This document shows positions 6,722-55,746 of a stretch of DNA of 64,000 nt, one piece after another. The stretch comes from an uncultured Oscillospiraceae bacterium (lineage in GTDB: Bacteria > Bacillota > Clostridia > Oscillospirales > CAG-382): the NCBI GenBank assembly GCA_964509125.1, contig CAZDVZ010000004.1:1691-65690 (forward strand), read 5' to 3'. The notes beneath the pieces were generated by a model, which worked only from the letters and a program-made list of their open reading frames with translations, ran no database searches and was not told the origin of the DNA. The position numbers and the translations under genes are program-made. Numbering within the stretch: position 1 is the stretch's first letter; every line of letters starts with the position of its first letter.

Positions 6722-7132
6722 CTATTGTATTTCTATTGAAATAATTTCAATTTCAAAAACCATAGCGCTGTTTTCAACAATGAATTTTTTTCCGGGAACA
6801 ACAAAATACTCTCCTGAAATATAAAATCCGTTTTCCTTTTCTCTTCCTTTGACAACAACAGCACCTTTTAACTCAAGTTTGCTTTCATCATACTTTATCT
6901 TTGATATAGAGCCGGCACTGATATCGCTTCCGGAAAACGTCAGTTTATTAAAATCAAAAACAGTGTTGTACATTTCGTCTGTAATTTCAGTTGCTTTAAA
7001 AATGTATTCTACAGTTTTCTCTTTGTATATAAACTCTGTTCTTATATCATCCCAGAAAATAGCCATAGCAATAATTATTATTGACAACAAAATTATAGAA
7101 AAGTCCAATATATTAAACTTCATCTTTTTCAT
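6722..7132 (-). CDS. Small N-terminally membrane-anchored protein (DUF4330-like), paralog of the upstream gene
   Basis: ORF 6722..7144. ATG 7132 is preferred because GAGG lies 6 nt upstream. KFNILDF followed by one TM helix, then a beta-rich C-terminal domain. Shares (K/R)F(N/T)ILDF, Y.FK and a C-terminal YY/FY..G pattern with the 7141..7659 product. Confidence 0.5.
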   Translation of the reverse strand: MKKMKFNILDFSIILLSIIIIAMAIFWDDIRTEFIYKEKTVEYIFKATEITDEMYNTVFDFNKLTFSGSDISAGSISKIKYDESKLELKGAVVVKGREKENGFYISGEYFVVPGKKFIVENSAMVFEIEIISIEIQ

Positions 7133-7140
7133 ACGAGGCC

Positions 7141-7659
7141 TCACTGATTAGATTCTGCCTTGGAAATAGATTCACATTTTCCAATAGCCGAATAATTTTT
7201 TGTTGTAAGCTCAATGTCATTTCCAAGTTTTACAGGTACACCATTTAAATAGTAATTTCCGGAATCATAATCAAGCTGAGCAGAAACCGTTACGATTACA
7301 AAAAAATCTTTTTCATCCGATTCGCTTTTCATTGAAAGGTCAGAATCTAATGATGTTTCAATCTCAGAATATGATTGATCTTTAGAAATTTCCTCTATCT
7401 CCACATTTGTAATTTTCCCAATAATCTTTTCTCCATCGGCGGATAAAACATCATCACCCTTTTGGAATTTTTCAATGTTATCAGCGGTGGCTTGATATTT
7501 AAAGGTATAAATAATATTATTGTCCGCAGTACGATTTTCGGAAGTAAAAAAATTGAATCCTATATAAACAGCAATTCCAACAGCCATAACACATATTAAA
7601 AAATCAAGAATCGTAAATCTTCTTCCTTTTTGTGACATTCTTTCATTTATTTTATTCAT
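7141..7659 (-). CDS. Small N-terminally membrane-anchored protein (DUF4330-like)
   Basis: 172 aa. ATG 7659 lies 6 nt after GGAGGT. RFTILDF motif plus a single TM helix. The stop overlaps the alternative GTG start of the next gene (GTGA). Confidence 0.5.
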   Translation of the reverse strand: MNKINERMSQKGRRFTILDFLICVMAVGIAVYIGFNFFTSENRTADNNIIYTFKYQATADNIEKFQKGDDVLSADGEKIIGKITNVEIEEISKDQSYSEIETSLDSDLSMKSESDEKDFFVIVTVSAQLDYDSGNYYLNGVPVKLGNDIELTTKNYSAIGKCESISKAESNQ

Positions 7660-7684
7660 CTGTGTACCTCCTTCATCGTAATAT

Positions 7685-9421
7685 TTAATAAATCTTAGTT
7701 ACAGATTTTATTAGTTTATCATTTTCAACTATCCTTCTGTAAGCCGACGATAGCCCGCCTAATATCCAAAACAATGTAAAAACACGATAATCTCCCCAAG
7801 AAAAGCATCCAAACGAAGATATAATGTAAACCAAAATAACGGAAAACAAGGCAACAGAAATACTCTTTACTTCAATTTCGTTATTATATCTGTGCGAAAG
7901 TGACACATTTCTGAGGAAAATAAAGCTCAAGACAAAAACCAACAGCATTATAAGCAAACCACCCCAAAAGGATAATTGGACCCACAAGTTTCCTGCATTT
8001 GCAATCCCTTCCGCTTCGTAGATAAGCTCACTGTTGCTTGTTCCAAAAAGAAAATGATTTTTGTATTTTATCAATAAATCCGACGCTACATAAATTCCAT
8101 TAACAGTATTTGAAAACGCGGAAAAGAAATCATAGGCTACGAATATTAGTGCCAGAGAAAAAAACACTGCTGTAATCTTGTTTTGGGATAATACCAAAAA
8201 AATGGTAATCAAAGCAACAATGCACGATAAAGCTGTAAGCTCCGCTCCGCAAAAACAAAGAGCAATAAAATTCAAAAAAACACCTATAATTACGATGCGC
8301 TTATTCTCTTCTTTTGATTTGAGCAAAAAGAAAGCAAAGATAAATGCACAAGCATACAAAACAGATAAAGCTGCCGTGTTAGTAAAAAAGGAGCTTTTTC
8401 TAATCTGGTCGGTGAAAAATAAATCAAAAGAAATGGTTCTATACTCCCAAAAATACGACGCAATATTATATGCGGCATATAGGGAAGTGGAAACAAAAAG
8501 ATTTTTTATACATTTTATTAAAAGATCTTTTTTACGCATCATCCCCGAAAACAAAAAATACAATAAGATAAAAGGAATTATATCCATCCAACTAAAATTT
8601 TGTGCCGGTATAAATAAAAATGATGCAAGAAACAACAAAACAGGGATATCATGCAATTTTAAGTATAAGTTTCTTTTGCCTCGAATCACCTTGACCAAAT
8701 ATGAAAAAAGCGCTATAGATGCCAAAAAAGTCATTAGTGATCGTGATGCAAAAGGCAAACACAAAGAAATTGACAACGCCGCTGTCTCCGGTCTACACAT
8801 AAAAATAGCGGTAACAATTAGCATAGAAACAAAAAAAACAATTTCCGATCTTGTAAAAGCTAAAGTGAAAAATCCTGAGAATATACCCACAATCAAAGCA
8901 CCGCTGATATTTCCGTGGCTTTCTCTTTTTTTATAAGTTATAAGTTTTTCACAGTGCAAATATTTTACAAAAACAGAAGATAAAAAACCGCTTTCACACA
9001 CAGAAGAAGCAATATTTTTTGATGAAAACAACATGGGAATCACAGCAAACAAAACTACTGCGGAATTTAACACAATATTCTCTGAAATTGTGTTTTTCAT
9101 GAAGCTGACAAGCAACGTCATCAAAACAAAAGATGTAATACACCACCCATAGCACCTTAAAGACATTGTTAATAAAAATTCATAAAATAAAGATAATTTT
9201 CGAACTATAAAACTGTTATCTATAGTCTTAGTCAAAAACCCCTTTACAGGATCAAAAAAATATTTTTTGAAAGGTATATTACTAACTTTATTTAAAATAA
9301 TTGAGTCTTTAACACTTACGCTATTAGAAGATACAGCACTATAAAAAAACGATCTTTTTATCATTGAAGAAAAATGTCCGAAAATATTTCCAACAGATAT
9401 TTTATTATGATGTTTTTTCAA
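7685..9421 (-). CDS. Large polytopic membrane protein of unknown function (possibly O-antigen-ligase/Wzy-like)
   Basis: 578 aa with at least 10 hydrophobic segments. TTG start at 9421, 8 nt after AAGGAGG and 22 nt after the trmD stop. The family assignment is a guess from topology and composition only. Confidence 0.4.
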   Translation of the reverse strand: MKKHHNKISVGNIFGHFSSMIKRSFFYSAVSSNSVSVKDSIILNKVSNIPFKKYFFDPVKGFLTKTIDNSFIVRKLSLFYEFLLTMSLRCYGWCITSFVLMTLLVSFMKNTISENIVLNSAVVLFAVIPMLFSSKNIASSVCESGFLSSVFVKYLHCEKLITYKKRESHGNISGALIVGIFSGFFTLAFTRSEIVFFVSMLIVTAIFMCRPETAALSISLCLPFASRSLMTFLASIALFSYLVKVIRGKRNLYLKLHDIPVLLFLASFLFIPAQNFSWMDIIPFILLYFLFSGMMRKKDLLIKCIKNLFVSTSLYAAYNIASYFWEYRTISFDLFFTDQIRKSSFFTNTAALSVLYACAFIFAFFLLKSKEENKRIVIIGVFLNFIALCFCGAELTALSCIVALITIFLVLSQNKITAVFFSLALIFVAYDFFSAFSNTVNGIYVASDLLIKYKNHFLFGTSNSELIYEAEGIANAGNLWVQLSFWGGLLIMLLVFVLSFIFLRNVSLSHRYNNEIEVKSISVALFSVILVYIISSFGCFSWGDYRVFTLFWILGGLSSAYRRIVENDKLIKSVTKIY

Positions 9422-9443: not shown

Positions 9444-10127
9444 TCAATCTTTCATCAATAGATCCGGACGCTTTCTTTTTGTTCTTTCTAACGACTGTTC
9501 ATAGCGCCATTTTTTTATATTTGCTTCATGACCGCTCAATAACACCTCAGGGACTTCTAAACCTTCAAAGACCCGCGGCCTCGTAAATTGCGGATACTCA
9601 AGCAGACCATTTTCCAAGCTTTCCTCAGAAGTACATTCGGGAGAGGGCAAAACGCCGGGAATTAAACGAGAAATACAATCTGATAAAATAAGAGCCGGCA
9701 ATTCTCCGCCGGTTAAAACATAATCCCCCACGGAAATTTCCTCATCGGAACAAAGAGTGATAGCGCGTTCATCAACGCCCTCATAATGTCCGCATATCAA
9801 CACCAAATTATCGTATTTTAGTAACTCTTTAGCTTTTTCTTGCGTAAAAACTTTGCCTTGCGGAGACATATATATCCTTCTGACCGAACCGTTCAATTTT
9901 GAAGTTACATCGCGGCAGCAGTCAACTAATGGTTGGCACGTCATAACCATGCCAAAGCCACCGCCAAAAGGTGAATCATCTACTTTTCTATGTTTATTTT
10001 TTGAATAACTCCTAATATCGGTACAATTAATTTCAACATAACCACCTTTTATACCACGGCCAATAATACTTTCTGAAAGATATGTTTCAACCATTTGGGG
10101 AAACAAAGTTAATATTTCAATACGCAT
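9444..10127 (-). CDS. trmD: tRNA (guanine37-N1)-methyltransferase
   Basis: 227 aa. Motifs: YMSPQGKVF, LICGHYEGVDERA, SVGDYVLTGGELPALIL. Confidence 0.95.
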   Translation of the reverse strand: MRIEILTLFPQMVETYLSESIIGRGIKGGYVEINCTDIRSYSKNKHRKVDDSPFGGGFGMVMTCQPLVDCCRDVTSKLNGSVRRIYMSPQGKVFTQEKAKELLKYDNLVLICGHYEGVDERAITLCSDEEISVGDYVLTGGELPALILSDCISRLIPGVLPSPECTSEESLENGLLEYPQFTRPRVFEGLEVPEVLLSGHEANIKKWRYEQSLERTKRKRPDLLMKD

Positions 10128-10153
10128 AAAAGCTCACTCACTTTATAATGATG

Positions 10154-10193
10154 AAAAAGGGGCTGTAAAAAAACATATTTGTTTTTTTACAGC
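10154..10193 (-). terminator. Intrinsic-terminator-like hairpin in the rimM-trmD spacer, in operon orientation
   Basis: Perfect 13-bp stem (10162-10174 GCTGTAAAAAAAC pairs with 10181-10193 GTTTTTTTACAGC) with a 6-nt loop. On the minus strand it is followed by CCCTTTTT (10161-10154). The stem is A/T-rich, so its strength is uncertain. Confidence 0.55.
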
Positions 10194-10210
10194 TTCTTCG
10201 TTCCTACTTA

Positions 10211-10433
10211 TCAAAAAAGGATAGAAAAAGGTCGTGAATGGACAAATAGAACCCAAAGCTGCACTTAAGCACTACAAGAGGGACTATTTGTTCACAGCAA
10301 AAGAGAATAATTTTATGATGATTGAAAAAACTTTTCTCATCAAAACACAAAAAAGCAGATCTATATCGATTATAACGCTCTTACTATATTATTTATCCTC
10401 TATTTGCGTCCACGACTTTTTCCCCCTTTTTAA
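10211..10433. repeat. About 220-nt non-coding element bounded by ~40-bp imperfect inverted repeats (structured RNA or MITE-like insert)
   Basis: The left arm is 10211-10250, TCAAAAAAGGATAGAAAAAGGTCGTGAATGGACAAATAGA. The reverse complement of the right arm (10399-10433) is TTAAAAAGGGGGAAAAAGTCGTGGACGCAAATAGA. Shared blocks are AAAAAGG, GAAAAAG, GTCGTG, GAC and AAATAGA. There is an internal bulged hairpin at 10311-10345. Confidence 0.5.
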
Positions 10434-10453
10434 TCATTTTAAGAAGTTAATCC

Positions 10454-10960
10454 CTATTCGGGCACTTTAACATCTTTGCCTAAACCTTCAATAAGTTCAA
10501 CCACGATTCTTTCAGGGGAAACTGATTTCACAAATGTATCGTTATAAGGAATCGTATACTCGATTCCATCGCCTCTAACAACATAATAAAAATTTCTCGG
10601 ACCTTCTTCAATCTCAGTGAGGATTCCAATCTCATCGCCTTCAATGTTGAAAACAGTCGCAGAAATTAAATCGTCATTAAAGTAAACGCCCTTTGGAAGT
10701 TTTACATCATCGCGGTCAAAATATACTGTTCTGCCCGTTAAGACAGAAGCAGCATTTCTGTCTTCGTAGCCTTTGAATATAATCGTAGACACAGAAGACC
10801 GAAAAGCTAAAATCTCAAGAAACTTTTCTCCATTGGGATCAAGATAAAGCTTCTTTACTTTGCTTAGAAAGTCGGGACTGTCACACCAACAGTCAAACCT
10901 AAGCTCCCCTTTTATTCCTCTCGGAGAACAAAGTCTGCCTGCTTCAAGATATTTTTTCAT
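10454..10960 (-). CDS. rimM: Ribosome maturation factor RimM
   Basis: 168 aa. N-terminal GRLCSPRGIKGELRF plus a C-terminal PRC-barrel. Conserved position between the KH protein gene and trmD. Confidence 0.9.
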   Translation of the reverse strand: MKKYLEAGRLCSPRGIKGELRFDCWCDSPDFLSKVKKLYLDPNGEKFLEILAFRSSVSTIIFKGYEDRNAASVLTGRTVYFDRDDVKLPKGVYFNDDLISATVFNIEGDEIGILTEIEEGPRNFYYVVRGDGIEYTIPYNDTFVKSVSPERIVVELIEGLGKDVKVPE

Positions 10961-10962
10961 AA

Positions 10963-11193
10963 CTACTGTACAATCTCAACAATCACACGCTTATTTTGCT
11001 TAATGGCAGCTGAGCGAATAAGTGTTCTAATGCATTTTGCAATTCTGCCATTGCGGCCAATGACACGTCCCATATCCTCTTTTGCAACAGTGAGTTCTAA
11101 AATGCAAACATCGCCGCTTACTTTTTCGGAAACGGAAACGCTGTCAGGGTCATTGACAATAGCCTTTGCTATGTCTGTGAGCATTTGTTTCAT
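10963..11193 (-). CDS. KH-domain RNA-binding protein (YlqC/UPF0109 family)
   Basis: 76 aa. KH GxxG motif GRVIGRNGRIAKCIRTL. Conserved location between rpsP and rimM. Confidence 0.85.
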   Translation of the reverse strand: MKQMLTDIAKAIVNDPDSVSVSEKVSGDVCILELTVAKEDMGRVIGRNGRIAKCIRTLIRSAAIKQNKRVIVEIVQ

Positions 11194-11221: not shown

Positions 11222-11464
11222 TTAGTCCAAAATACCGTTTTTCTTTAAAATGGAACGAACGGTATCTGTAGGTTGTGCCCCGTTGGAAAGCCATTTTTTG
11301 GCTTTTTCTGCATCGATTGTAATTTCAGCGGGTTCTCTCATAGGATTGTAAAATCCAATTTCCTCAATAAATCTTCCGTCTCTTGAGAAACGTGAATCCG
11401 CAACTACGATACGATATGCGGGAGCCTTCTTTGCGCCAATTCTTCTAAGTCTGATTTTTACCAT
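11222..11464 (-). CDS. rpsP: 30S ribosomal protein S16
   Basis: 80 aa. Begins [25 protein letters not shown]. Confidence 0.95.
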
Positions 11465-11511: not shown

Positions 11512-12831
11512 TTAAAAAGGCATCTTAAAGCGTTTTTTCGCTTTCTTAGAAGTGAACTGTTTCATAATTTGTCTCGTTTGATCAAACTGCTTTAAAAGTC
11601 TATTCACTTCCTCTACGCTTCTACCGCTTCCTGCGGCAATACGTTTTTTTCTTGATGAGTTAATTATTTCCGGTCTTACTCTTTCTTTATAAGTCATAGA
11701 CCTTATAATAGCTTCCATGTGTGCGACCGCTTTTTCATCGATCTTGGCATCTTTAAGCTGCCCTGCGTTTACTCCCGGAAGCATACCTAAAATAGATTCT
11801 AATGAACCCATTTTTTTAATTTGTTGAAATTGATCTAAAAAATCATCTAAAGTAAATGATGATTGTCTGATCTTTTGTTCAAGCTCCGCCGCCTTCTTTT
11901 CATCAATAGCTGCCTCAGCCTTCTCAATGAGGGAAAGGACGTCGCCCATTCCTAATATTCGAGACGCAACCCTGTCGGGATGAAAAGGCTCCAGATTTTC
12001 TAATTTTTCTCCGGTGCCCATAAACTTAATGGGTTTTCCCGTTACATATCTAACAGAAAGCGCGGCACCGCCCCTCGTATCGCCATCGGTTTTGGTCAAA
12101 ATTACACCCGTTATATCGAGGAGATTGTTAAAACTTTCCGCAATATTTACCGCATCCTGACCGGTCATCGCATCGACAACCAAAAGGATCTCCGTAGGTT
12201 GAACTTGGTTTTTAATGTTGCTAAGCTCTTCCATCAACTGTTCGTCAATGTGAAGTCTTCCCGCCGTATCCAAAAAAACCATGTCGTATCCGTACTTAAC
12301 AGCATAAGCAACAGCCTCTTTAGCTGTAATAACCGGATCCTGGGTGCCTCTGTCAAAAACAGGAACCTTTGCTTTTTCACCCATTATCTGAAGCTGTTTA
12401 ATCGCTGCCGGACGATATATATCACAAGCAACAAGCAAGGGATTTTTACCTTTATTTTTATACATCGCCGCAAGTTTTGCGCAATGAGTTGTCTTACCCG
12501 ACCCCTGAAGCCCGCACATAAGTATTACTGTGGGCGGCTTTGAACTTATTTCTAATTTTGAATTTTCGCTCCCCATCAATGCGATCATTTCTTCATTTAC
12601 AATCTTAACAATCTGCTGCGCCGGAAGCAAGCTTTCCAAAACATCAGCGCCAACACAACGCTCGGAAACTTTTTTTATAAACTCTTTTACAACTTTAAAG
12701 TTAACATCAGCCTCAAGAAGCGCCAGTTTTATCTCGCGCATCCCAACTTTTACATCGCTCTCCGTAAGCTTTCCCTTGCCACGAAAGAACTTAAATGCAT
12801 TGGAAAGTTTGTCACTAAGACTTTGGAACAT
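11512..12831 (-). CDS. ffh: Signal recognition particle protein Ffh
   Basis: 439 aa. GTPase motifs GLQGSGKTT, DTAGR and TKTDGD. Methionine-rich M domain with a basic C-terminus. Confidence 0.95.
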   Translation of the reverse strand: MFQSLSDKLSNAFKFFRGKGKLTESDVKVGMREIKLALLEADVNFKVVKEFIKKVSERCVGADVLESLLPAQQIVKIVNEEMIALMGSENSKLEISSKPPTVILMCGLQGSGKTTHCAKLAAMYKNKGKNPLLVACDIYRPAAIKQLQIMGEKAKVPVFDRGTQDPVITAKEAVAYAVKYGYDMVFLDTAGRLHIDEQLMEELSNIKNQVQPTEILLVVDAMTGQDAVNIAESFNNLLDITGVILTKTDGDTRGGAALSVRYVTGKPIKFMGTGEKLENLEPFHPDRVASRILGMGDVLSLIEKAEAAIDEKKAAELEQKIRQSSFTLDDFLDQFQQIKKMGSLESILGMLPGVNAGQLKDAKIDEKAVAHMEAIIRSMTYKERVRPEIINSSRKKRIAAGSGRSVEEVNRLLKQFDQTRQIMKQFTSKKAKKRFKMPF

Positions 12832-12873: not shown

Positions 12874-13260
12874 TTATTGCTGATTATTTTGATCTATATA
12901 ATCCATATGTTCTCTACCAAAATCGGAGAGTGCATTTTGTGCTGTTTTAACAGCATCATCGGAATTGCCGTTATTTTGCAAGACGGCAACCTTTAAAAGT
13001 GCGTTTCTTAAGCCTTCACACGTTTCGGTTAACTCATGACAATGGAGTTTATTTTCCAAATCAAAAAGACGCTCTTCGCCTCTCTTTAATATTTCATAAA
13101 CTCCTTGACGAGTTATTCCCAAATTTTCACTTATTTCGGATAACGACATATCCTTGTTATAATACATATCAAGTGCATCGAATTGCTTTTTAGAAAGTAC
13201 GCTCTCATAATAATCCAAAAGCAACCCAACTTGAACGAATCTATTACCTGAAAATCTCAT
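12874..13260 (-). CDS. ylxM: YlxM/UPF0122 helix-turn-helix protein (sigma-70 region-4-like)
   Basis: ORF 12874..13278. ATG 13260 is preferred. DYYESVLSKKQFDALDMYYNKDMSLSEISENLGITRQGVYEILKRG matches the YlxM pattern. Conserved ylxM-ffh pairing. Confidence 0.8.
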   Translation of the reverse strand: MRFSGNRFVQVGLLLDYYESVLSKKQFDALDMYYNKDMSLSEISENLGITRQGVYEILKRGEERLFDLENKLHCHELTETCEGLRNALLKVAVLQNNGNSDDAVKTAQNALSDFGREHMDYIDQNNQQ

Positions 13261-13325
13261 ATAACTACCAAAAAACAATATTTTTAAAAAATAATTGGTG
13301 TAAACAAAAAAACTTTACAGTCCGA

Positions 13326-13354
13326 ATTATACCTCATTTAATTTCATTTGTCAA
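13326..13354 (-). promoter_or_regulatory. Consensus sigma-A promoter for ylxM-ffh
   Basis: On the minus strand: TTGACA (13354-13349), 17-nt spacer, TATAAT (13331-13326). Confidence 0.6.
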
Positions 13355-13379
13355 GTGTTTTTTTAATTTTTTTCACTCG

Positions 13380-13408
13380 TTGACAATTAAAATATATTAT
13401 AGTATAAT
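13380..13408 (+). promoter_or_regulatory. Consensus sigma-A promoter for the radical SAM gene
   Basis: TTGACA (13380-13385), 17-nt spacer, TATAAT (13403-13408). Lies 31 nt upstream of ATG 13440. Confidence 0.6.
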
Positions 13409-13439
13409 TCTCTAAAACATCAATGAAAGGTATCTTCGT

Positions 13440-14315
13440 ATGGAATGTTATATTTGTCCTCGAAAATGCGGAGCAGACAGAAACAATGAATCGGGGTTTT
13501 GCGGTTGTGATAACGATATCAAAATATGTCGTGCTTCTCCACACCACTGGGAAGAACCGTGTCTTTCCGGCAAAGCAGGTTCGGGAACCGTTTTCTTTTC
13601 AGGATGCCAGCTTCATTGTATCTATTGCCAAAATCACAAAATTTCACACGGGGACATTGGTAAAACGGTATCTCAATCAGAATTATATGATGTTTTCTTT
13701 AAATTAAAAAACATGGGTGTGCACAATATCAACTTAGTGACACCGGATATGTACATACCGCAAATAATTCCTGTTATAAAAAAAGCAAAAAAAGATGGGA
13801 TTGAAATCCCGTTTATAATGAACTGTTCCGGCTATGAAACAGAAGAAATGATAAACTCGCTTAAAGACATTATCGATATATATCTTCCGGATTTTAAATA
13901 TATGTCTCCCCTACTTTCTCAAAAATATTCTTACGCAAAAGATTACTCAGAAATCGCAAAAAAAGCAATAGAATCCATGGTGAAACAACAAGATAAATGT
14001 ATTTTTGACTCTTATGGGATGATGCAAAAAGGGGTCATTGTTCGTCACATGATGTTGCCCGGAAAGTTGCACGACTCGAAAAAGATCCTATCATATCTGT
14101 ATGAAACATACGGAGACAATATATACATCAGCATAATGAGCCAATATACTCCGGTAGGCAAAAGCAAATACGAAGAATTAAACAAAAAAATCACAGGGGA
14201 AGAATATAACTCTCTTGTTGAATTTGCTATTTCGTTAGGTATAAAAAACTCATACATACAAGAAGGAGAAGCGGCAAATGAAAGCTTTATTCCCAACTTC
14301 TCCTGCGAATTTTAA
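13440..14315 (+). CDS. Radical SAM protein, PflX-like (homolog of pyruvate formate-lyase activase, COG1313 type)
   Basis: 291 aa. CxxxCxxC cluster CQLHCIYCQN, plus an N-terminal Cys-rich segment CPRKCGADRNNESGFCGC. Confidence 0.8.
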   Translation: MECYICPRKCGADRNNESGFCGCDNDIKICRASPHHWEEPCLSGKAGSGTVFFSGCQLHCIYCQNHKISHGDIGKTVSQSELYDVFFKLKNMGVHNINLVTPDMYIPQIIPVIKKAKKDGIEIPFIMNCSGYETEEMINSLKDIIDIYLPDFKYMSPLLSQKYSYAKDYSEIAKKAIESMVKQQDKCIFDSYGMMQKGVIVRHMMLPGKLHDSKKILSYLYETYGDNIYISIMSQYTPVGKSKYEELNKKITGEEYNSLVEFAISLGIKNSYIQEGEAANESFIPNFSCEF

Positions 14316-14316
14316 T

Positions 14317-15933
14317 TTAATTATTTTGTGTTATCAATCCATCAGAGATTGATAGCTTATAATCTATTGAGTCACGAAGTGCTATCCACGAAGCTTGGAT
14401 AATATCGGGAGAAACCCCAACCGTACGCCATGAGCTTTTTCCGTCTGCTGAATCAATAACAACTCTTACTTTCGCTTTTGTTGCTTTAGCCGAATTGATA
14501 ACACGCACCTTATAGTCTATGAGTCTCATTTCCGAAAGCGATGGATAAAATTTCTCAAGCGCCATTCTAAGAGCATTATTCATAGAATCCACAGGTCCGT
14601 TCCCTTCTGCCGCAACAAGAACAGAGTCTCCTTCAACTTGTATCTTTATAAGTGACGATGTGAGAGTTTCACCCTTTGACGGATCGGAAAGCACGATTTT
14701 AAAATCTAAAATTTCAAAATATTTTTTTCTAAGCTTTAACACGTCCAAAACTTCAAGAGAAAGCGAGCCATCTGCATAATCGAATGCATATCCTTCGCTT
14801 TCATTTTTTTTGACTCTTGAAAGTATCTCATCGGCATACTGATATAAATGTTTGTCATCCATTTCAATTTTTATATTCTTTCCAATGAATGACAACAGCT
14901 TTTCTTTTGCTGCGGCTTTCCCCGCCTGCTCTGTCAACAATGTTCTTGTTTTATTTCCCACAAGGCATGGAGATATATGCTCAAAGCCTCCCATTTTAAT
15001 ATTTCCGTCAATATGAAGTCCTGCTTTATGAGAAAATGCGTACCGTCCAATGTATGGAGTTCTCTCATTAAAAACAATATTTGAAACATCTGAAATAAAT
15101 CGAGAAACGGAAGAAAGCGACGAAAGCTGTCGCGGACTTACTATTTTCATATTCAATTTTAATTGAATGTCGGGGATCAAAACACTAAGATCTGCATTTC
15201 CACATCTTTCTCCGATCCCGCCAACAGTCCCCTGAATATGAATAGCTCCCGATTCAACAGCAACAATTGAATTTGCAACAGCTAATCCAGAATCGTTATG
15301 GCAATGAATTCCAACAGGAACAGAAAAACGCTCAGTTATACATTTTACACCTTTTTCTATAACACGTGGAAGCGATCCTCCATTAGTGTCACAAAGTATT
15401 ATTCGATCTGCTCCCGCAGAAACAGCCGCATCTACTGCACCTGTTGCAAAATCAAAATCTTCTTCCATGCCATCAAAAAAATGTTCAGCATCAAAAATAA
15501 CAAAACATCCTTTTTCTTTAGCATATTTTATACTATCAAAGATAATTCTTTGGTTTTCCGCCTCGTCTGCGCCTAAAATTCTTTCAGCTTGACTTCTGCT
15601 TGCTTTTCCACAAATGGAAACAGTACGAAATGGATTGTTTACGCCTTTTACAAAAGCTTCATTTTCCTCTGCTTTCATTCCGCATTTTATCGTAGGCATA
15701 AATGCAACAATTTTAATAGGCAGCTTGTCATTCTTTTTAAGATCATATAGTCTCTCAAAAAGTTCCGCATCTTTTTCCGAAATGCCGGGAGATCCTACCT
15801 CTGCAAACGTAACTCCAATTTTTCCCAACGCTTCGATTATGAGCAATTTATCCTCTACGGAAAACGAAATGTCAGGACTTTGAGCACCGTCTCTCAAAGT
15901 AGTATCAAAAATTTCAAAAGCATTGTCTTTCAT
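14317..15933 (-). CDS. cimA: Citramalate synthase (IPMS/homocitrate synthase family, long form)
   Basis: 538 aa. FDTTLRDGAQ, HCHNDSGLAVANS, and a C-terminal LeuA-dimer-type regulatory domain. The DGAQ variant and the length fit the CimA subfamily. Specificity cannot be proven from sequence alone. Confidence 0.75.
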   Translation of the reverse strand: MKDNAFEIFDTTLRDGAQSPDISFSVEDKLLIIEALGKIGVTFAEVGSPGISEKDAELFERLYDLKKNDKLPIKIVAFMPTIKCGMKAEENEAFVKGVNNPFRTVSICGKASRSQAERILGADEAENQRIIFDSIKYAKEKGCFVIFDAEHFFDGMEEDFDFATGAVDAAVSAGADRIILCDTNGGSLPRVIEKGVKCITERFSVPVGIHCHNDSGLAVANSIVAVESGAIHIQGTVGGIGERCGNADLSVLIPDIQLKLNMKIVSPRQLSSLSSVSRFISDVSNIVFNERTPYIGRYAFSHKAGLHIDGNIKMGGFEHISPCLVGNKTRTLLTEQAGKAAAKEKLLSFIGKNIKIEMDDKHLYQYADEILSRVKKNESEGYAFDYADGSLSLEVLDVLKLRKKYFEILDFKIVLSDPSKGETLTSSLIKIQVEGDSVLVAAEGNGPVDSMNNALRMALEKFYPSLSEMRLIDYKVRVINSAKATKAKVRVVIDSADGKSSWRTVGVSPDIIQASWIALRDSIDYKLSISDGLITQNN

Positions 15934-15941
15934 GAAAGCTC

Positions 15942-17456
15942 CTATTCACAATAAAGCATGGCTTTATTAATCGCGTTAACATAGGCTTTTATACTTGACT
16001 CTAATATGTTTGTAGAAAATCCTCTGCCCGGATGTTCACCGTTTTCATCACTGATCCTTACTCTAACTTCTCCAACAGCATCGGTTCCGCCGGTAACAGC
16101 TTTGATCTCATAAGACGTAAGGTTATATTCCTTATTAACGATTTTATTAACAGCATTAAATACTGCTTCTATGGGTCCATTTCCAATTGCAGCATCTTCA
16201 AAAACCTTTTCGTCTTTTGTGAGTGTAACCATTGCCATTGATCTAATGCTGTTACTGCATTGTATCTGGTACGACTCAAGTTCATAACCGTTTACCACGC
16301 GCGAATCCAAAATCGCTTCTTCAACCAAAACCGTTATATCTTTCTCTGAAACGTATTTTTTTCTGCAAGAAAGGTCTTTAAAAGCCGAAAACGCAGTTTT
16401 AAGAACCTCAGGCGTTGCGTGTAGTCCAAGTTCAGCCACTTTGCTATTAAAAGCGTGGTGTCCCGAATGTTTTCCTAAAACAATATTGTCTCCTCTTGAG
16501 CCAACATCTTCGGGTGAAAATATCTCATATGTCCCCCTTGACGCCATAACACCATGCTGATGTATTCCGGACTCATGTGCAAAAACATTGCTTCCTACTA
16601 TAGGTTTGTTCGTAGAAACATATACCCCCGTAAGGTTTGAAACCAATTTGCTTGCCTTTGTAAGAAGCTTTGTGTTTATTTTATGCTTTACTCCAAACAG
16701 ATCTTCGCGAACAGAAATGCCCATAGCAAGTTCTTCGAGAGACGCATTGCCTGCCCTCTCACCTATTCCGTTTACCGTACAATCAATTTGCGTTGCGCCG
16801 CCCAAAACTCCCGCAAGAGAATTTGAAACAGCAAGTCCTAAATCATTGTGACAATGAACTGCAATGGCGACATTATCTATACCCGTTGTATTTTCTCTGA
16901 TGTTTCTGATTTTCTTTTCAAAATCAAAAGGCGTGGCATATCCCACTGTGTCAGCGATGTTAACGGTTGTTGCGCCGGCTTTAATGGCTGTCTCAAAAAC
17001 CTTTATTAAAAAATCATCTTCGGTTCTTGAAGCATCTTCCGCAGAAAATTGGACATCATAACAATACTTTTTTGCGTATTCGACAGAAGATCGAACCATT
17101 TCCAAAATTTGATCCCGTGTTTTTTTCAGTTTATATTTAAGGTGAATATCACTGGTGGCAACAAAAACATGTATTCTTGGATTCTCTGCGGATTTTATTG
17201 CATCCCAACATATGTCTATATCACTGAAAGAAGCACGTGAAAGTCCTGCAATTATACTCCCCTTAACATTAGCTGCAATTTTTGAAGCAGCCGTGAAATC
17301 ATTTTTAGATGAACAAGGAAACCCTGCCTCTATTATATCGACTCCCATATCGGAAAGTAAATTTGCAACCCTGATCTTATCGGAAACATTTATATTTACT
17401 CCCGCCATTTGTTCTCCATCACGAAGTGTGGTATCAAAAAATACAACTTTTCTCAT
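15942..17456 (-). CDS. leuA: 2-isopropylmalate synthase
   Basis: ORF 15942..17468 opens with a GTG. ATG 17456 is preferred. FFDTTLRDGEQ, HCHNDLGLAVSNS, C-terminal LeuA allosteric domain. Confidence 0.85.
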   Translation of the reverse strand: MRKVVFFDTTLRDGEQMAGVNINVSDKIRVANLLSDMGVDIIEAGFPCSSKNDFTAASKIAANVKGSIIAGLSRASFSDIDICWDAIKSAENPRIHVFVATSDIHLKYKLKKTRDQILEMVRSSVEYAKKYCYDVQFSAEDASRTEDDFLIKVFETAIKAGATTVNIADTVGYATPFDFEKKIRNIRENTTGIDNVAIAVHCHNDLGLAVSNSLAGVLGGATQIDCTVNGIGERAGNASLEELAMGISVREDLFGVKHKINTKLLTKASKLVSNLTGVYVSTNKPIVGSNVFAHESGIHQHGVMASRGTYEIFSPEDVGSRGDNIVLGKHSGHHAFNSKVAELGLHATPEVLKTAFSAFKDLSCRKKYVSEKDITVLVEEAILDSRVVNGYELESYQIQCSNSIRSMAMVTLTKDEKVFEDAAIGNGPIEAVFNAVNKIVNKEYNLTSYEIKAVTGGTDAVGEVRVRISDENGEHPGRGFSTNILESSIKAYVNAINKAMLYCE

Positions 17457-17474
17457 ATATCTTCTCACTATAGT

Positions 17475-17511: not shown

Positions 17512-18729
17512 TTATTTTACAAGCTTGATAAAATTCTTCTTCCCTCTTTTAAGAACAACTCCATTGGAAAAAGCAGATATATCGTACCTACATTTAATGT
17601 CTGTAACTTTTTCTCCATCCACTGTTACACCGCCTTGCTCAACAGCACGTCTCGCTTCTGATTTTGAAGGCACAAGTCCGGAAACAACAAGCATTGTAAG
17701 GATATCAATCGTTCCATCTGAAAAATCTTCATCTTTTAATTCAACGGAAGGCATATTTGCAAAATCACCGGTGCCAAAAACAGCCTTAGCAGCACTTTGT
17801 GCTTTATCAGCCTCCTCGTCACCATGAACAAGCTTGGTAAGTTCATATGCCAAAATCTCTTTTGCTTTATTAAGTTCACTACCCGTCCATGAGCTCATGG
17901 CATCAATTTCCTCAATTGGGAGGAATGTAAGCATACGGATGCAATTTAAAACATCTGCATCGTCAACATTTCTCCAATATTGGTAAAAATCATATGGAGA
18001 AGTTTTATTTGGATCCAGCCAAACAGCACCGCTTTGCGTTTTGCCCATTTTTTTGCCTTCAGAATTGAGAAGAAGAGTAATGGTCATTGCATATGCATCC
18101 TTCCCCAACTTACGTCTGATAAGCTCTGTGCCGCCCAACATATTGCTCCATTGGTCGTCGCCGCCAAATTGCATATTACAGCCATATTTTTGATACAAAG
18201 CGTAAAAGTCATAACTTTGCATTATCATATAATTGAATTCGAGGAATGAAAGCCCCTTTTCCATACGTTGTTTATAACATTCAGCGGTCAACATCCTATT
18301 TACACTAAAGCACGCACCGACTTCTCTAAGAACCTCAACATAATTAAGATCAAGAAGCCAATCGGCGTTGTTAACCATTATAGCCTTTCCCTCTGAAAAA
18401 TCTATAAAGCGGCTCATCTGTTTTTTAAAGCACTCACAATTGTGAGCGATGGTTTCTTTTGTCATCATAGTACGCATATCTGTTCTGCCGGAAGGGTCTC
18501 CAATCATCGCAGTGCCGCCACCTATGAGAGCAATGGGTTTATTCCCTGCCATTTGAAGTCTTTTCATCAAACAAAGTGCCATGAAATGTCCCACATGAAG
18601 GCTATCAGCCGTAGGATCAAAACCTATATAAAAAACAGCTTTTCCGGAATTTATCAGTTCTTTTATTTCTTCTTCATCAGTGACCTGTGCAATCAGCCCA
18701 CGTGCTTTTAATTCGTCATAAACGGTCAT
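17512..18729 (-). CDS. tyrS: Tyrosine--tRNA ligase
   Basis: ORF 17512..18750. ATG 18729 is preferred, 9 nt after GAGAGG. HIGH motif (HVGH), KMSKS motif (KMGKT), C-terminal S4 domain. Confidence 0.95.
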
Positions 18730-18818
18730 ATATACTATACCTCTCAACATTTATCTCTGTAGATAGTATAACATCTTTTTCCCAAAAAGCAATAGGCAAT
18801 TTACATTTTTTCATAAAA

Positions 18819-33102: not shown

Positions 33103-33139
33103 AACTTTTAATGTTAGAATTTTAAAACTTTTAATGTTA
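33094..33139. repeat. Perfect 23-bp tandem duplication, each copy containing a 6-1-6 palindrome
   Basis: GAATTTTAAAACTTTTAATGTTA occurs at 33094-33116 and again at 33117-33139. Each copy contains TTAAAAcTTTTAA, centred at 33105 and 33128. Copy 1 overlaps the tcdA stop codon. Copy 2 ends 6 nt before the -35 box of the ACP promoter. Confidence 0.9.
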
Positions 33140-33145
33140 AATCTA

Positions 33146-33174
33146 TTGAAAAAAACAAAAAAATATTGTATAAT
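33146..33174 (+). promoter_or_regulatory. Sigma-A promoter for the acyl carrier protein gene
   Basis: TTGAAA (33146-33151), 17-nt spacer, TATAAT (33169-33174). Confidence 0.55.
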
Positions 33175-33211
33175 GTAACTTAATATAATTTTCACCTAAA
33201 GGAGACAAAAA

Positions 33212-33433
33212 ATGTTTGAAGAAATCAAAAGCATAATTGCAAAACAACTCAGAATTAACAAAGAGGACATCAAAAACACAGACAGACTTATTGAAGACTT
33301 AGGCGCCGATTCGCTGGAAATGGCAGAGGTTTTAATGACAATTGAAGAAAAATTCGGACTTTACATCACTGACGAAGAGATTGAAAAAATCAAAACAGTT
33401 GGAGACATCGCGAATTATCTTGATAAAATGTAA
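33212..33433 (+). CDS. Acyl carrier protein
   Basis: 73 aa. Phosphopantetheine attachment motif LGADSLEMAEVLMTIEEKFG. SD AAAGGAGA lies 6 nt upstream. There are no fab or pls genes nearby. Confidence 0.85.
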   Translation: MFEEIKSIIAKQLRINKEDIKNTDRLIEDLGADSLEMAEVLMTIEEKFGLYITDEEIEKIKTVGDIANYLDKM

Positions 33434-33471
33434 TTTTATTATCAATCAAAGTTAGGAAAGGGATTTAAGTT

Positions 33472-39363: not shown

Positions 39364-39416
39364 TTTTTTTTGTTTATTGTGACGACCCAACATTACGGAG
39401 ATTTAATTCTATTTTT

Positions 39417-39683
39417 ATGAAAAATATTTTATTTTTACTTTCAAAAACGGTTTCTTTATACTTGTCAGTGTTGCTTTTTCTTTTGATGATAAGGATGTTT
39501 ATGTCTCTTTTTGTCAATGAAAGCAACTCTAAACCTGTATTGTTCGTTTATAGCGCAACAGAACCCGTTATATTTCCTGTAAGAAACTTTTTAATGCATT
39601 TTGAGTTTTTTCAATCTATTCCGGTAGATTTTTCTGTTACAATCACAGTTTTTATCCTGTGGTTTGTAACAATGTTCATATAG
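39417..39683 (+). CDS. YggT family membrane protein
   Basis: 88 aa with two TM helices and an EPVIFPVRN motif. Conserved position after sepF. Confidence 0.8.
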   Translation: MKNILFLLSKTVSLYLSVLLFLLMIRMFMSLFVNESNSKPVLFVYSATEPVIFPVRNFLMHFEFFQSIPVDFSVTITVFILWFVTMFI

Positions 39684-39712
39684 TTTAGATTTATTTTACT
39701 ACGAGGTAGTTT

Positions 39713-51839: not shown

Positions 51840-53090
51840 ATGGCAGTCATCAAACCTATCAAACCGTTGCGCTTTGCGGACAAAAAAACAATAGATTCGT
51901 GTGTATGCCCCCCATATGACATAATTAGCGATAAAGAAAGAGAAGAGATCGTTAAAAGAAACGATCACAATATTGTAATCCTTGAAAAACCGGAAGGCGA
52001 AAACAAATACGAAAACGCGGGGTCACTTTTAAAAGCGTGGATAAAAGAAGGCGTTTTAAAACGTGACGATTCAGAAGGTATTTTTGTTTATCAAGAAAAG
52101 TTTTCCGTTGCAGGAAAAGAATATGTATTTGACGGTCTTGTATGCCTTGCAAAACTTTACGAGTTTTCAGAAAAAGTAGTTCTTCCCCACGAAGAAACTC
52201 TTTCAAAAGCGAAGCAAGACAGACTAAATCTGCTTACTGCTACACATTGCAACTTCTCTTCTGTTTATTCTCTCTATATGGATGAAGAAAAAACAGTTGA
52301 AAAAATCATTGAAAAAGCAAAAAATCTTGATTGTGAGTGTTCTTTTACCGACAACGAAAATGTTACACACACTCTTTGGAAGATTACTGATAAAGATGAC
52401 TTGAACGAGCTTGTAGTTGCGTTTAAGGACAAGCAACTCTTTATTGCCGACGGACATCACAGATACGAAACAAGTCTTAACTACAGAAGAATATGCAAAG
52501 AGCAAGGAATTACTGACCTTGATACAGATTACATACTTATGACTCTTGTTGATATGGATAACAAGGGCTTGGTGATCATGCCAACTCATCGTGTTATTAC
52601 AGAAAAAGGCTTAGACATCGATGCATTGAAAGAAAAATGTAAATCAGAGTTTGAAATCGTTGAAATGGATGACATTAATACGGCAGAAAAAACACTTGCT
52701 TCTCTTTCTGACATTCATGCATACGCGCTTTACAGCGGAGGAAATGGTTACACACTTTTCAAGCGCAAAGAGGACGCTGTTATTGAAGGACATTCTGACG
52801 CATACTGCGGACTCGATGTTTCTGTTCTTCACACGCTCATCCTTGAAAAAGGCTTGGGAATCGATAAAGAAAATATGGCTAATCAAAAAAGCCTTATTTA
52901 CACAAGAAGCATTGACGAAGCAGTAAGCCTCGTTAAAAACGGCGATGCATCTTGCACTTTTATTCTTAATTCCACAAAAGTTCAACAAATTAAAGCCGTT
53001 TCCTTGGCGGGAGACAAGATGCCTCAAAAATCTACCTATTTTTATCCTAAGCTTATAACAGGACTTGTTATAAATTGCCTTGAAAAATAA
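51840..53090 (+). CDS. DUF1015 family protein
   Basis: ORF 51822..53090. ATG 51840 is preferred, 7 nt after [19 protein letters not shown]-terminus, CPPYDIIS, and [12 protein letters not shown]. Confidence 0.8.
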
Positions 53091-53106
53091 TTTATCGGAG
53101 CTTTAT

Positions 53107-55746
53107 ATGAATAACTTACTTGATAAGAAATATGATCCTAAAAATGTTGAAGACCGACTTTACAAATTTTGGTCTGAAAACGGATATTTTACACCTGAAA
53201 TAGATAAATCCAAAAAGCCTTTTTCCATTGTTATTCCACCGCCAAACGTAACGGGACAGCTCCACATGGGACACGCCCTTGACGAAACATTGCAGGACAT
53301 TCTTATAAGAACCAAACGTATGCAAGGATATTGTACTCTGTGGATTCCCGGAACTGATCATGCGGGAATAGCCACCCAAATTAAAGTTGAAGAACAACTT
53401 CGTAAAGAGGAAGGGCTTTCACGTCACGATTTGGGAAGGGAAAAATTTCTTGAACGTGTATGGGACTGGAAAAAAATGTACGGCAGCCGTATCATCAATC
53501 AGCTCAAAAAGTTAGGTTCTTCGTGCGACTGGACGAGAGAACGCTTTACAATGGATGAAACTTGCTCTGCCGCTGTTAAGAAGATTTTTGTTTCCCTTTA
53601 CAACAAAGGGCAGATTTATCGCGGCTATAGAATTATAAACTGGTGTCCAAACTGCAATACAGCTCTTTCTGATACGGAAGTTGATCACAAGGACACTGCC
53701 GGTAATTTCTATCATATCAAATATCCTATTAAGGGTACTGATGAGATGTTGGAAATTGCAACAACTCGTCCGGAAACAATGTTAGGCGATACGGGCATCG
53801 CAGTAAACCCTAACGATGAAAGATACACAAAATATATTGGAAAAACGGCAATTTTACCTTTGATGAACAGAGAAATTCCAATTGTTGCCGACGAATATGT
53901 TGACATGGAATTTGGAACAGGGTGTGTTAAAATGACTCCCTGTCACGACCCTAACGATTATCAGGTTGCCTTAAGACACAACCTTGAAATGATAGTGGTT
54001 CTTGACGGTAACGCCAAAATAAATGAAAACGGTGGAAAATATCAAGGTATGGATCGCTTTGAAGCAAGAAAAGCTATCATTGAAGATCTTGATGCGCTTG
54101 GACTTTTAGTTAAAATAGAGCCTCATTCTCATGCCGTCGCTCACTGCTATAGATGCGGTACTATCGTAGAACCAATTTCTTCCAGACAATGGTTTGTTAA
54201 AATGGAAGAACTTGCAAAGCCTGCCATTGAAGCAGTGAAAAAAGGTGACATTAAATTTGTTCCTGAACGCTTTTCCAAAAACTACCTTAACTGGATGGAA
54301 AATATTTTAGATTGGTGCATTTCACGTCAACTTTGGTGGGGACACAGAATACCCGCCTTCTATTGTGATGATTGCGGGGAAATGACCGTTTCCGAAAACG
54401 ATGTAACCGTATGCCCAAAATGCGGAAGTAAAAACATAACTCAAGACGAGGATGTACTTGATACGTGGTTTTCATCGGCACTTTGGCCAATGTCAACATT
54501 GGGTTGGCCCAACCAAACAGAGGATCTTGAATACTTTTATCCTACAAGTGTTCTTGTTACCGGCTATGACATTATTACATTCTGGGTTTCAAAAATGATC
54601 TTCCAAGGACTTGAAGGCATGAAAGAAAAACCATTTAGTGATGTTTTGATTCACGGGCTTGTAAGAGATTCACAAGGAAGAAAGATGAGTAAATCCTTAG
54701 GCAACGGAATTGATCCGCTTGAAATCATTGACAAATACGGTGCAGATGCTTTAAGGTTTACACTTGCAACAGGTAATAGTCCCGGAAACGATATGCGTTT
54801 CTACGAAGAACGTGTCGAAGCGTCGCGAAATTTCTGCAACAAAATTTGGAACGCTGCAAGATTTGTTCTTATGAACCTCGAAGAAGATATTAAAATGCCG
54901 GACGACATTACAACGCTTTCCCTTGAAAAAGAAGATAAATGGATACTTTCCAAATACAACACCTTGGTAAAAGAAGTAAATGAAAACATTGATAAATACG
55001 AATTAGGCGTTGCAGTGTCAAAACTTTACGATTTTATTTGGGATGTATTCTGCGATTGGTACATTGAACTTGTAAAACCCAGACTTAACGCCAAAGGAAC
55101 AGAAAGCAACAGCGTTGCGGGAAAAGTTTTAGTCTATGTTCTTTCGGGAACTATGAAACTGCTTCATCCCTTCACGCCATTTATTACAGAGGAAATTTGG
55201 CAAAAACTTCCTCATGAAGGCGAGAGCATTATGATCTCCTCCTTCCCTGTTTTTGATTCAAAATTAACATTTACCGCTGACGAAGAAAATGTTCAATATG
55301 CAATTGACGCTATTAAAGCTATCAGAAACAGACGTTCGGAGATGAATGTTCCTCCCTCAAAAAAATCTGCCCTATATATAAAAACGGAATATAAAGAACT
55401 TTTTGAAACGTCAAATATTTGGTTTGAAAAACTTGCTTCCGCTTCTGCCGTTGAAATAATCGATAATGATCCCGAAGACGCGGATGAATGCGTTCAAATC
55501 ATTACATCCGGTGCTACTGTATTTATTAAAACAAAAGAAATGGTAGACATTGAAGGAGAACGTAAACGTCTCACCAAAGAACTTGAAGATGCAGAAAAAG
55601 AGCTTTCAAGAGCCACATCAAAATTGGCAAACGCTGATTTTGTTTCAAAGGCTCCCGCAAAAGTAATTGATGCTGAAAGAGAAAAGGTTAAAAAGTACGA
55701 GGCAATGAAACAAAGCATTACCGCCGCACTTGAAAAGCTTGTATGA
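53107..55746 (+). CDS. valS: Valine--tRNA ligase
   Basis: ORF 53080..55746. ATG 53107 is preferred. HIGH-type [16 protein letters not shown], an editing domain, and a C-terminal coiled-coil. Confidence 0.95.

Follow-up and report, generated by a model that had tools for sequence, protein, structure and literature searches.

Within the window analysed here, i.e., the whole 64,000-nucleotide (nt) stretch of contig CAZDVZ010000004.1 from an uncultured Oscillospiraceae bacterium, the genes rimM and trmD are separated by a spacer of 326 nt (10128–10453) that carries a conserved intercistronic hairpin. Sequence comparison with related loci shows that this hairpin has been split, in the window's lineage only, by an insertion of about 229 nt. 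Coordinates are those of the window, and the operon lies on its minus strand. The insert is an orphan, a repeat-bounded intergenic sequence without a sequence relative in any searched collection. The reading we favor, with about even confidence, is that a stray element resembling a MITE (a miniature transposable element with inverted repeats), or a relic of one, entered the hairpin, is passively co-transcribed and weakens termination there; we infer the mobile origin, the co-transcription and the effect on termination. The length of the rimM–trmD gap given in a first-pass annotation of this DNA agrees with the open reading frames (ORFs) and Pfam domains at both ends. That annotation had taken the entire 326 nt as the insert, whereas the actual insertion covers 10194–10422 and the rest aligns with relatives. 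In the direction of transcription, the parts are as follows.

10454–10960, minus strand: rimM, 168 aa, the last gene 5′ of the spacer (ORF; Pfam RimM and PRC_RimM).
10423–10453, minus strand: ancestral 5′ part of the spacer, ending in TTAAAATGATTAAAAAGGGG, which comprises the A-tract shoulder and the basal G's of the hairpin 5′ arm (alignment to relatives).
10194–10422, minus strand: lineage-specific insertion, ~229 nt, 33% GC (absent from relatives' spacers; deletion restores the hairpin).
10154–10193, minus strand: remainder of the conserved hairpin, with a 13-bp stem (10193–10181 / 10174–10162), CCC and T5 (flagged as terminator-like; homology to relatives).
10128–10153, minus strand: ancestral 3′ hairpin shoulder and trmD ribosome-binding region (..AGTGAGTGAGCTTTT before the ATG; alignment to relatives).
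9444–10127, minus strand: trmD, 227 aa (ORF; precomputed Pfam match PF01746, tRNA_m1G_MT).

Relatives were defined as loci whose TrmD is 79–90% identical to that of the window, which corresponds to the genus level; the next TrmD matches fall to 72% or less. Spacers were read directly at the rimM–trmD junction in six relatives, and the motif count covers ten loci that span this junction. The spacer lengths are 72 nt (L002), 87 nt (L003), 86 nt (L055/L056), 156 nt (L005), 56 nt (L007), and 153 nt (L008). Thus, rimM and trmD, which had been supposed to be normally contiguous, are separated by 56–156 nt in this genus even without the insert. All six directly read spacers contain ..AAATGATTTAAAGGGCTGTAA-loop-TTATAGCCCTTTT.. 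at 20–50 nt upstream of the trmD ATG, and the hairpin motif occurs exactly once per locus in all ten relatives' loci. A GAGTG motif is also present 6–9 nt upstream of the trmD ATG in all relatives.

The window's spacer matches this hairpin in two pieces. Its 5′ flank, ..CTTCTTAAAATGATTAAAAAGGGG (10446–10423), aligns with ..CTTAAAAAATGATTTAAAGGG of the relatives, and its 3′ part, GCTGTAAAAAAAC-AAATAT-GTTTTTTTACAGCCCCTTTTT (10193–10154), aligns with the rest of their hairpin; the 13-bp hairpin of the window is homologous to the relatives' GGGCTGTAA..TTATAGCCC hairpin with its T-run. The insertion site lies at the base of the hairpin 5′ arm, between GGGG and GCTGT, and the G-run at this border makes the borders uncertain by about 2 nt. 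When 10194–10422 is removed in silico, AAAAAGGGG is joined to CTGTAAAAAAAC, and the resulting sequence folds at −37.3 kcal/mol into an extended, perfect hairpin, which can be aligned with those of the relatives. An outer inverted repeat of 20 nt with 90% complementarity (10143–10162 / 10423–10442), absent from the first-pass annotation, represents the A-tract and T-tract shoulders of the old hairpin. A TAAAAT box, formerly proposed as a weak −10-like element next to the insert, is indeed present (10441–10436), but it is shared, as conserved sequence, with relatives devoid of the insert.

In the relatives, the hairpin has a 9-bp stem with four G-C pairs, directly followed by T4–T6, and its predicted folding energy is −17 to −19 kcal/mol. 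In an alignment of seven versions of the stem, all nine pairs are standard in every sequence (100% of the cells); a double change turns U-A into C-G (L003/L055), and a further change turns G-U into G-C. With all stem pairs kept, including one double change, the alignment gives modest but consistent support for maintenance of the hairpin as a structure. In the window, the perfect 13-bp stem described previously was confirmed; it is followed by CCC and T5 (10158–10154) and ends 26 nt before the ATG, and a simple scanner flags it as terminator-like, with 14 pairs and then CCCTTTTT. In Bacillus subtilis, internal terminators or attenuators of the ylxM-ffh-rpsP-khpA-rimM-trmD-rplS operon give rise to nested transcripts and lower expression of the distal genes (PMC10100781). 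The conserved hairpin and its T-run most likely act as an intrinsic terminator or attenuator that leaks, or else stabilize an mRNA end; the terminator activity is deduced from sequence. The shortest spacers leave only about 20–30 nt between the hairpin and the trmD ATG, without a recognizable conserved promoter, which implies that trmD depends mainly on read-through from the strong promoter upstream.

Because relatives without the insert carry the same hairpin, at the same place in all ten loci, 10154–10193 is ancestral and is not the insert's own terminator, as had been claimed. An independent small-RNA gene between rimM and trmD, on either strand, thereby loses its main argument. The strong predicted structure and the weak promoter-like sites on both strands would suit such a gene, but the terminator credited to it is older than the insert, both strands fold equally well, and no convincing promoter was found. 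Nor did any Rfam family (6S included) or any homologue emerge from the collections searched, and we consider a gene of this kind highly improbable. The Rfam check proposed earlier gave no match at the gathering threshold in the 64 kb, and the region around the spacer (10050–10550) returned only noise up to E = 10. The best scores there reached at most 23 bits against cut-offs of 41–100 and came from eukaryotic snoRNA/miRNA or unrelated models; RsaF, for instance, scored 22.8 bits against a cut-off of 60. No signal of 6S RNA, a riboswitch, a T-box, a ribozyme, or a group I/II intron was detected by Rfam in the 64 kb. The suggested resemblance to 6S or another known RNA is thus unsupported, given the Rfam result, the missing conservation and the equal folding of both strands.

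In a neighbor-joining tree of TrmD, the window is nested within the clade, and a basal subclade (P0007, P0009, and P0010; locus L007) has an intact hairpin and no insert, which places the insertion in the window's lineage. The opposite polarity, in which the relatives would have lost an ancestral segment, was rejected, given the window's nested position and the perfect hairpin kept by all relatives. Further out, at 67% TrmD identity, rimM and trmD overlap by 4 nt in L059, which is the classical arrangement. The rimM–trmD junction is evolutionarily labile in this family, with rapid gain and loss of sequence. Two observations were made in passing on the spacers of other loci. L005 (1427–1500) and L008 (3398–3490) have 70–95 extra nt between the rimM stop and the hairpin, and these stretches are apparently unrelated to each other. 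L057 and L058 (TrmD 72%) contain an unrelated, GC-richer spacer of 310 nt without inverted repeats (L057, 3116–3425; L058, 232–541).

The locus was found in only one other assembly, Logan SRR14307658, which is 100% identical to the window over 6954 nt. A chimeric assembly join within the palindrome is scarcely credible, since the block enters and leaves at a single point of the hairpin, whose two halves remain intact and are collinear with those of the relatives. Palindromes are hard to assemble, and both assemblies may derive from the same reads, yet the NCBI metagenome-assembled genome (MAG) and the Logan assembly, made with different assemblers, agree base for base.

The internal features of the insert are listed below in the direction of transcription.

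10399–10422, minus strand: left inverted-repeat arm (GAAAAAGTCGTGGACGCAAATAGA), flush with the insertion border (repeat search; predicted pairing probability with the right arm ~0.99).
10316–10342, minus strand: internal bulged hairpin (GAUGAGAAAAG..UUUUC..UCAUC; minimum-free-energy folds).
10238–10295, minus strand: second internal hairpin with arms GAACAAATAG and CTATTTGTCC (inverted repeat I10; minimum-free-energy folds).
10224–10250, minus strand: right inverted-repeat arm (TCTATTTGTCCATTCACGACCTTTTTC), 30 nt inside the other border (repeat search).
10194–10223, minus strand: 30-nt 3′ tail outside the repeat (TATCCTTTTTTGATAAGTAGGAACGAAGAA), whose similarity to the flanks is not significant.

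The GC content of the insert is 33%, compared with 36.6% for the window, and the sequence of its ends reads GAAAAAGGTCGTG.. The two arms (10399–10422 and 10224–10250) match in a gapped alignment at 24 of 27 nt, with a score of 26 versus 13.1 ± 2.3 for shuffled sequences; this score was equalled by 1 of 2000 shuffles and by none of 658 background windows of 229 nt from the same sequence. The inverted repeat of ~40 bp previously proposed at 10211–10250 / 10399–10433 is significant in this core of 24/27 nt, but its extension consists of a shared CCTTTTT that was reached in 460 of 3000 shuffles. The interior hairpin predicted at 10311–10345 was recovered at about 10316–10342 in the minimum-free-energy folds. 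In folds of this kind, the left arm has two alternative partners, the right arm and an internal segment. The spacer is far more stably folded than its dinucleotide shuffles, with z = −6.2 (operon strand) and −6.7 (plus strand); for the insert alone, the values are −3.9 and −4.5, respectively. Such similar folding of both strands points to palindromy at the DNA level, as in transposon ends, rather than to selection of an RNA from one strand.

The left repeat arm lies at the exact insertion border, as transposon ends do. Since a repeat-bounded, non-coding and AT-rich block starts exactly with one of its arms, a mobile, MITE-like source is the most economical explanation. MITEs generally measure about 50–500 bp and have no coding capacity, and the insert, at 229 nt, contains ORFs without a Pfam match or homologue. 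Other classes of small elements fit less well. REP/BIME/REPIN sequences are G+C-rich palindromes of 20–40 nt that recur many times, often in inverted pairs; in contrast to them, the hairpin occurs once per locus and only between rimM and trmD, and the insert is AT-rich and single-copy in the searched data. IS200/IS605-derived elements lack terminal inverted repeats and insert 3′ of a fixed target of 4–5 nt; the insert ends form a mutual inverted repeat, not the two like-oriented subterminal hairpins of such elements. A MITE-like insertion, one of the three options put forward by the first-pass annotation, is therefore the best fit among them, but additional copies, which would be its key proof, were not found in the data searched.

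The small ORFs of the insert and the spacer showed no Pfam match and no homologue. A search by the protein route was aimed at spurious ORFs that might have been called in other copies of the insert; neither the 78-aa plus-strand ORF nor a six-frame pseudo-protein of the insert had a match among 5.8 billion predicted proteins. The idea of a small protein or toxin was unpersuasive from the sequence, one candidate being a hydrophobic ORF of 18 aa without a ribosome-binding site. At the left edge of the insert (10411–10426, minus strand), GGGGG is followed 8 nt later by a GTG mini-ORF of six codons (MDANRG), which is probably fortuitous.

Several results weigh against a MITE-like origin or against the role assigned to the hairpin. 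No target-site duplication is visible at the junctions AAAAAGGGG/GAAAAAG.. and ..CGAAGAA/GCTGT (the slash marks the border), where only a single G is ambiguous, and the right arm, unlike the flush left arm, is subterminal, 30 nt from the insert border. Further copies were not recovered. The 64-kb window contains no second copy by BLASTN or pattern search, a result that excludes only a very abundant family of roughly more than 100 copies by our estimate. No copy was found in ~100 kb of relatives' loci, and blastn in distant mode gave no match in plasmid and phage collections. A degenerate seed that matches both repeat arms, GAAAAAG-N(0,1)-TCGTG-N(3,7)-CAAATAGA, returned 15 hits in GTDB representative genomes and 29 in JGI metagenomes, all of them single chance matches in unrelated taxa with similarity limited to the seed. 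Because the window's own copy was not returned, the source genome lies outside the scanned GTDB and JGI collections, which limits what these scans say about copy number. Four internal seeds had no match in IMG/VR, and a shortened repeat-arm pattern had one lone match there, on a giant-virus contig (L060). No transposase or site-specific recombinase is encoded among the 57 long ORFs of the window, which are housekeeping genes. As regards the hairpin, the L002 version, with a 9-nt loop, and the L007 version, with T4 only, were not flagged by the simple scanner and are not textbook terminators. Finally, the NCBI MAG and the Logan assembly may not be independent and possibly stem from the same sample.

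Some of these results would suit a one-off event instead, in which foreign or distant genomic DNA, possibly a palindromic intergenic or terminator region, was captured through illegitimate recombination, or through slippage of replication where a fork had stalled, and is neutral junk that belongs to no family. The insert is single-copy wherever it was searched for, it lacks a target-site duplication and has its right arm 30 nt from the border, and it lies in a housekeeping region without mobile-element genes. The junction is labile as well, given the 70–95 extra nt in L005 and L008 and the unrelated 310-nt spacer of L057. However, a highly significant repeat with its left arm exactly at the border has the look of a transposon end, and no donor sequence was found. 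We regard such a one-off capture as unlikely, though it is the main alternative.

According to the MITE-like reading that we prefer, the hairpin of the clade would set trmD and the downstream genes below the level of the upstream genes. In the window's lineage, ~229 bp of AT-rich non-coding DNA entered between GGGG and GCTGT. Having neither a promoter nor a terminator nor a gene of its own, the insert would be transcribed along with the operon. In the RNA, the repeat arms would pair and turn the insert into a compact domain, while the old hairpin would keep its upper 13 bp, the stem being reduced from 17 to 13 bp. The predicted pairing probabilities are ~0.99 for the repeat stem and ~0.98 for the upper 13-bp stem, in both the nascent and the full RNA. 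Closure of the basal GGGG/CCCC pairs has a predicted probability of ~0 while the U-tract is in the transcription bubble and of 0.37 in the full RNA; at these values, the idea that the folded insert re-closes the base of the terminator is weakly supported, and it was not retained. In intrinsic terminators, a shortened stem that is set off from the U-tract should weaken termination although the hairpin is not abolished. With the stem reduced from 17 to 13 bp and CCC standing between stem and U-tract, termination is probably weakened here, not abolished. The insert is thus most likely a tolerated passenger that may modestly raise read-through.

A more active part can be imagined for the insert, namely that of a lineage-specific cis-acting RNA domain that tunes read-through, processing or stability at the attenuator. 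It could, for example, provide a site for a double-strand-specific RNase, or adopt alternative pairings by which the basal GGGG/CCCC of the terminator or the trmD ribosome-binding site is released or masked. The insert does lie inside a conserved hairpin of regulatory appearance and alters its geometry, its left arm has alternative partners (the right arm or the internal segment), and there is precedent for altered mRNA stability through palindromic repeats that are co-transcribed (PMC3184786). On the other hand, all sampled relatives live without the insert, both strands fold equally well with no sign of strand-specific RNA selection, and no Rfam riboswitch or leader was found. A leader role thus gains nothing from the relatives, and the insert, for which no homologue was found, offers no covariation. 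We consider this domain improbable. A recent control module in the attenuator, whether an RNA pairing switch or invertible DNA, which would make read-through into trmD and the genes of the 578-aa and two DUF4330 proteins switchable, appears very unlikely.

The DNA form of such a switch can be specified further. The two repeats would serve as recombination sites for a recombinase encoded elsewhere, and inversion of the 148-nt core (10251–10398) would point a promoter-like site, now on the plus strand, toward trmD and the membrane-protein genes downstream. Repeats that flank about 150 nt resemble clostridial switches in layout and size, and a promoter-like sequence, TTCACA-17-TATGAT (10/12), is indeed located at 10291–10319 on the plus strand inside the core. 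Promoter-like sites nevertheless occur here at near chance frequency (16 found versus 10.6 ± 3.1 expected), the arms are only ~71–85% alike and differ by indels, and no recombinase is encoded in the 64 kb. Moreover, a single orientation is present in both assemblies, and phase variation of an operon for an essential tRNA methylase is itself unlikely. Inversion is accordingly a far-fetched explanation for the locus.

The genes and the putative promoter upstream of rimM are given in the direction of transcription.

13326–13354, minus strand: likely operon promoter 5′ of ylxM-ffh-rpsP-khpA-rimM (TTGACA-17-TATAAT, 12/12; consensus match only).
12874–13278, minus strand: ylxM (ORF in the window).
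11512–12831, minus strand: ffh (ORF in the window).
11222–11464, minus strand: rpsP (ORF in the window).
10963–11193, minus strand: khpA, encoding a KhpA-type KH protein (ORF; Pfam KhpA).

The remaining junctions of the operon, ffh-rpsP, rpsP-khpA, and khpA-rimM, measure 47, 28, and 2 nt, as noted before. Two further gaps of more than 300 nt between long ORFs occur in the window, at 33103–33471 and 39364–39712, with plausible small genes of 73 and 88 aa inside. Because both rival gaps hold plausible small genes, the earlier description of the rimM–trmD spacer as the longest non-coding stretch is reasonable, and the spacer is plausibly the longest that is truly non-coding.

The likely operon promoter belongs to a pair. 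Back-to-back perfect consensus promoters lie within a 31-nt inverted repeat at 13324–13410: the minus-strand TTGACA-17-TATAAT (13354–13326) points to ylxM-ffh, and the plus-strand TTGACA (13380)-17-TATAAT (13408) points to a radical-SAM gene (13440–14315). Downstream (6722–9421, minus strand), trmD is followed not by rplS but by the gene of a conserved protein of 574–605 aa (578 aa in the window), which belongs to no Pfam family and has only a sub-threshold match to DUF5317. Two DUF4330 paralogues, ptsH, and uvrC come next. This order downstream of trmD is common to the window, L002, L003, L005, L008, L057, and L059 and spans TrmD identities of 67–90%.

Elsewhere in the window, tyrS (17512–18750) has only 68 nt upstream of it, and valS (53080–55746) overlaps the preceding gene; Rfam found neither a T-box leader nor any other family in the 64 kb, an unusual situation for aminoacyl-tRNA synthetase genes in Firmicutes. 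Two neighboring genes of LeuA/HMGL-like synthases (538 and 508 aa) are arranged in tandem at 14317–17468 on the minus strand. At 56930–59344 on the plus strand, an 804-aa papain-family cysteine protease with a lectin-like domain and a type I dockerin is encoded, which suggests a cellulosome-type scaffold system in this organism.

The insert has little importance beyond annotation, where it is best recorded as a lineage-specific non-coding insertion in a conserved intercistronic hairpin and not as a small-RNA gene. The locus nevertheless offers a natural before-and-after pair, with the hairpin intact in ten relatives' loci and split in the window, that bears on how far the disruption of an attenuator is tolerated. 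The conserved rimM–trmD hairpin would also be a small example, open to testing, of how trmD is tuned at the sub-operonic level. If the source genome contains further copies, the insert would represent a new MITE family of uncultured, dockerin-encoding Clostridia with a preference for hairpin targets.

Among known systems, invertible switches such as those of Clostridioides difficile (cwpV, flgB) and gut Bacteroidales have imperfect repeats of ~20–30 nt that flank 150–300 nt in 5′ or intercistronic positions, and in invertible promoter switches the formation of a terminator can depend on orientation. In contrast to them, the present locus shows no sign of two orientations, a recombinase, or conservation. 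Closer in kind are the MITEs of the ERIC/IRU and Correia types, which are small, non-coding and imperfectly palindromic with inverted repeats of ~25 nt, sit in transcribed operon spacers, are co-transcribed as long hairpins, and can change mRNA processing or stability (PMC3184786). Indeed, co-transcribed palindromic repeats within operons constitute a known class (PMC3184786). ERIC and Correia elements, however, are characterized by dispersal in many copies, by repeats at both termini and by a TA target duplication, whereas the insert has one known copy, one subterminal arm and no duplication. They share no sequence similarity with it, and their hosts are Proteobacteria, whereas the organism here is Clostridium-like.

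As for the target, IS1397 and ISKpn1 (named in the reference list of PMC3184786) enter palindromes or hairpins, namely REP sequences or palindromic units, and the present insert likewise lies inside a stable extragenic hairpin. Both are full insertion sequences with a transposase that enter the loop of a repeated palindrome, whereas the present insert, 229 nt long and without coding capacity, sits where the 5′ arm of a single-copy hairpin begins. SPRITE resembles the locus as an intergenic element of Firmicutes with a terminator-like RNA. It is, however, itself a repeated, dispersed unit, whereas here each locus has a single, locus-specific hairpin and the insert is a sequence distinct from it. 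A parallel by gene content is the B. subtilis operon, which is the same Firmicute operon and is subdivided by partial terminators; its sites are located after ylqC (khpA) and inside the trmD ORF, whereas the hairpin described here stands between rimM and trmD (PMC10100781).

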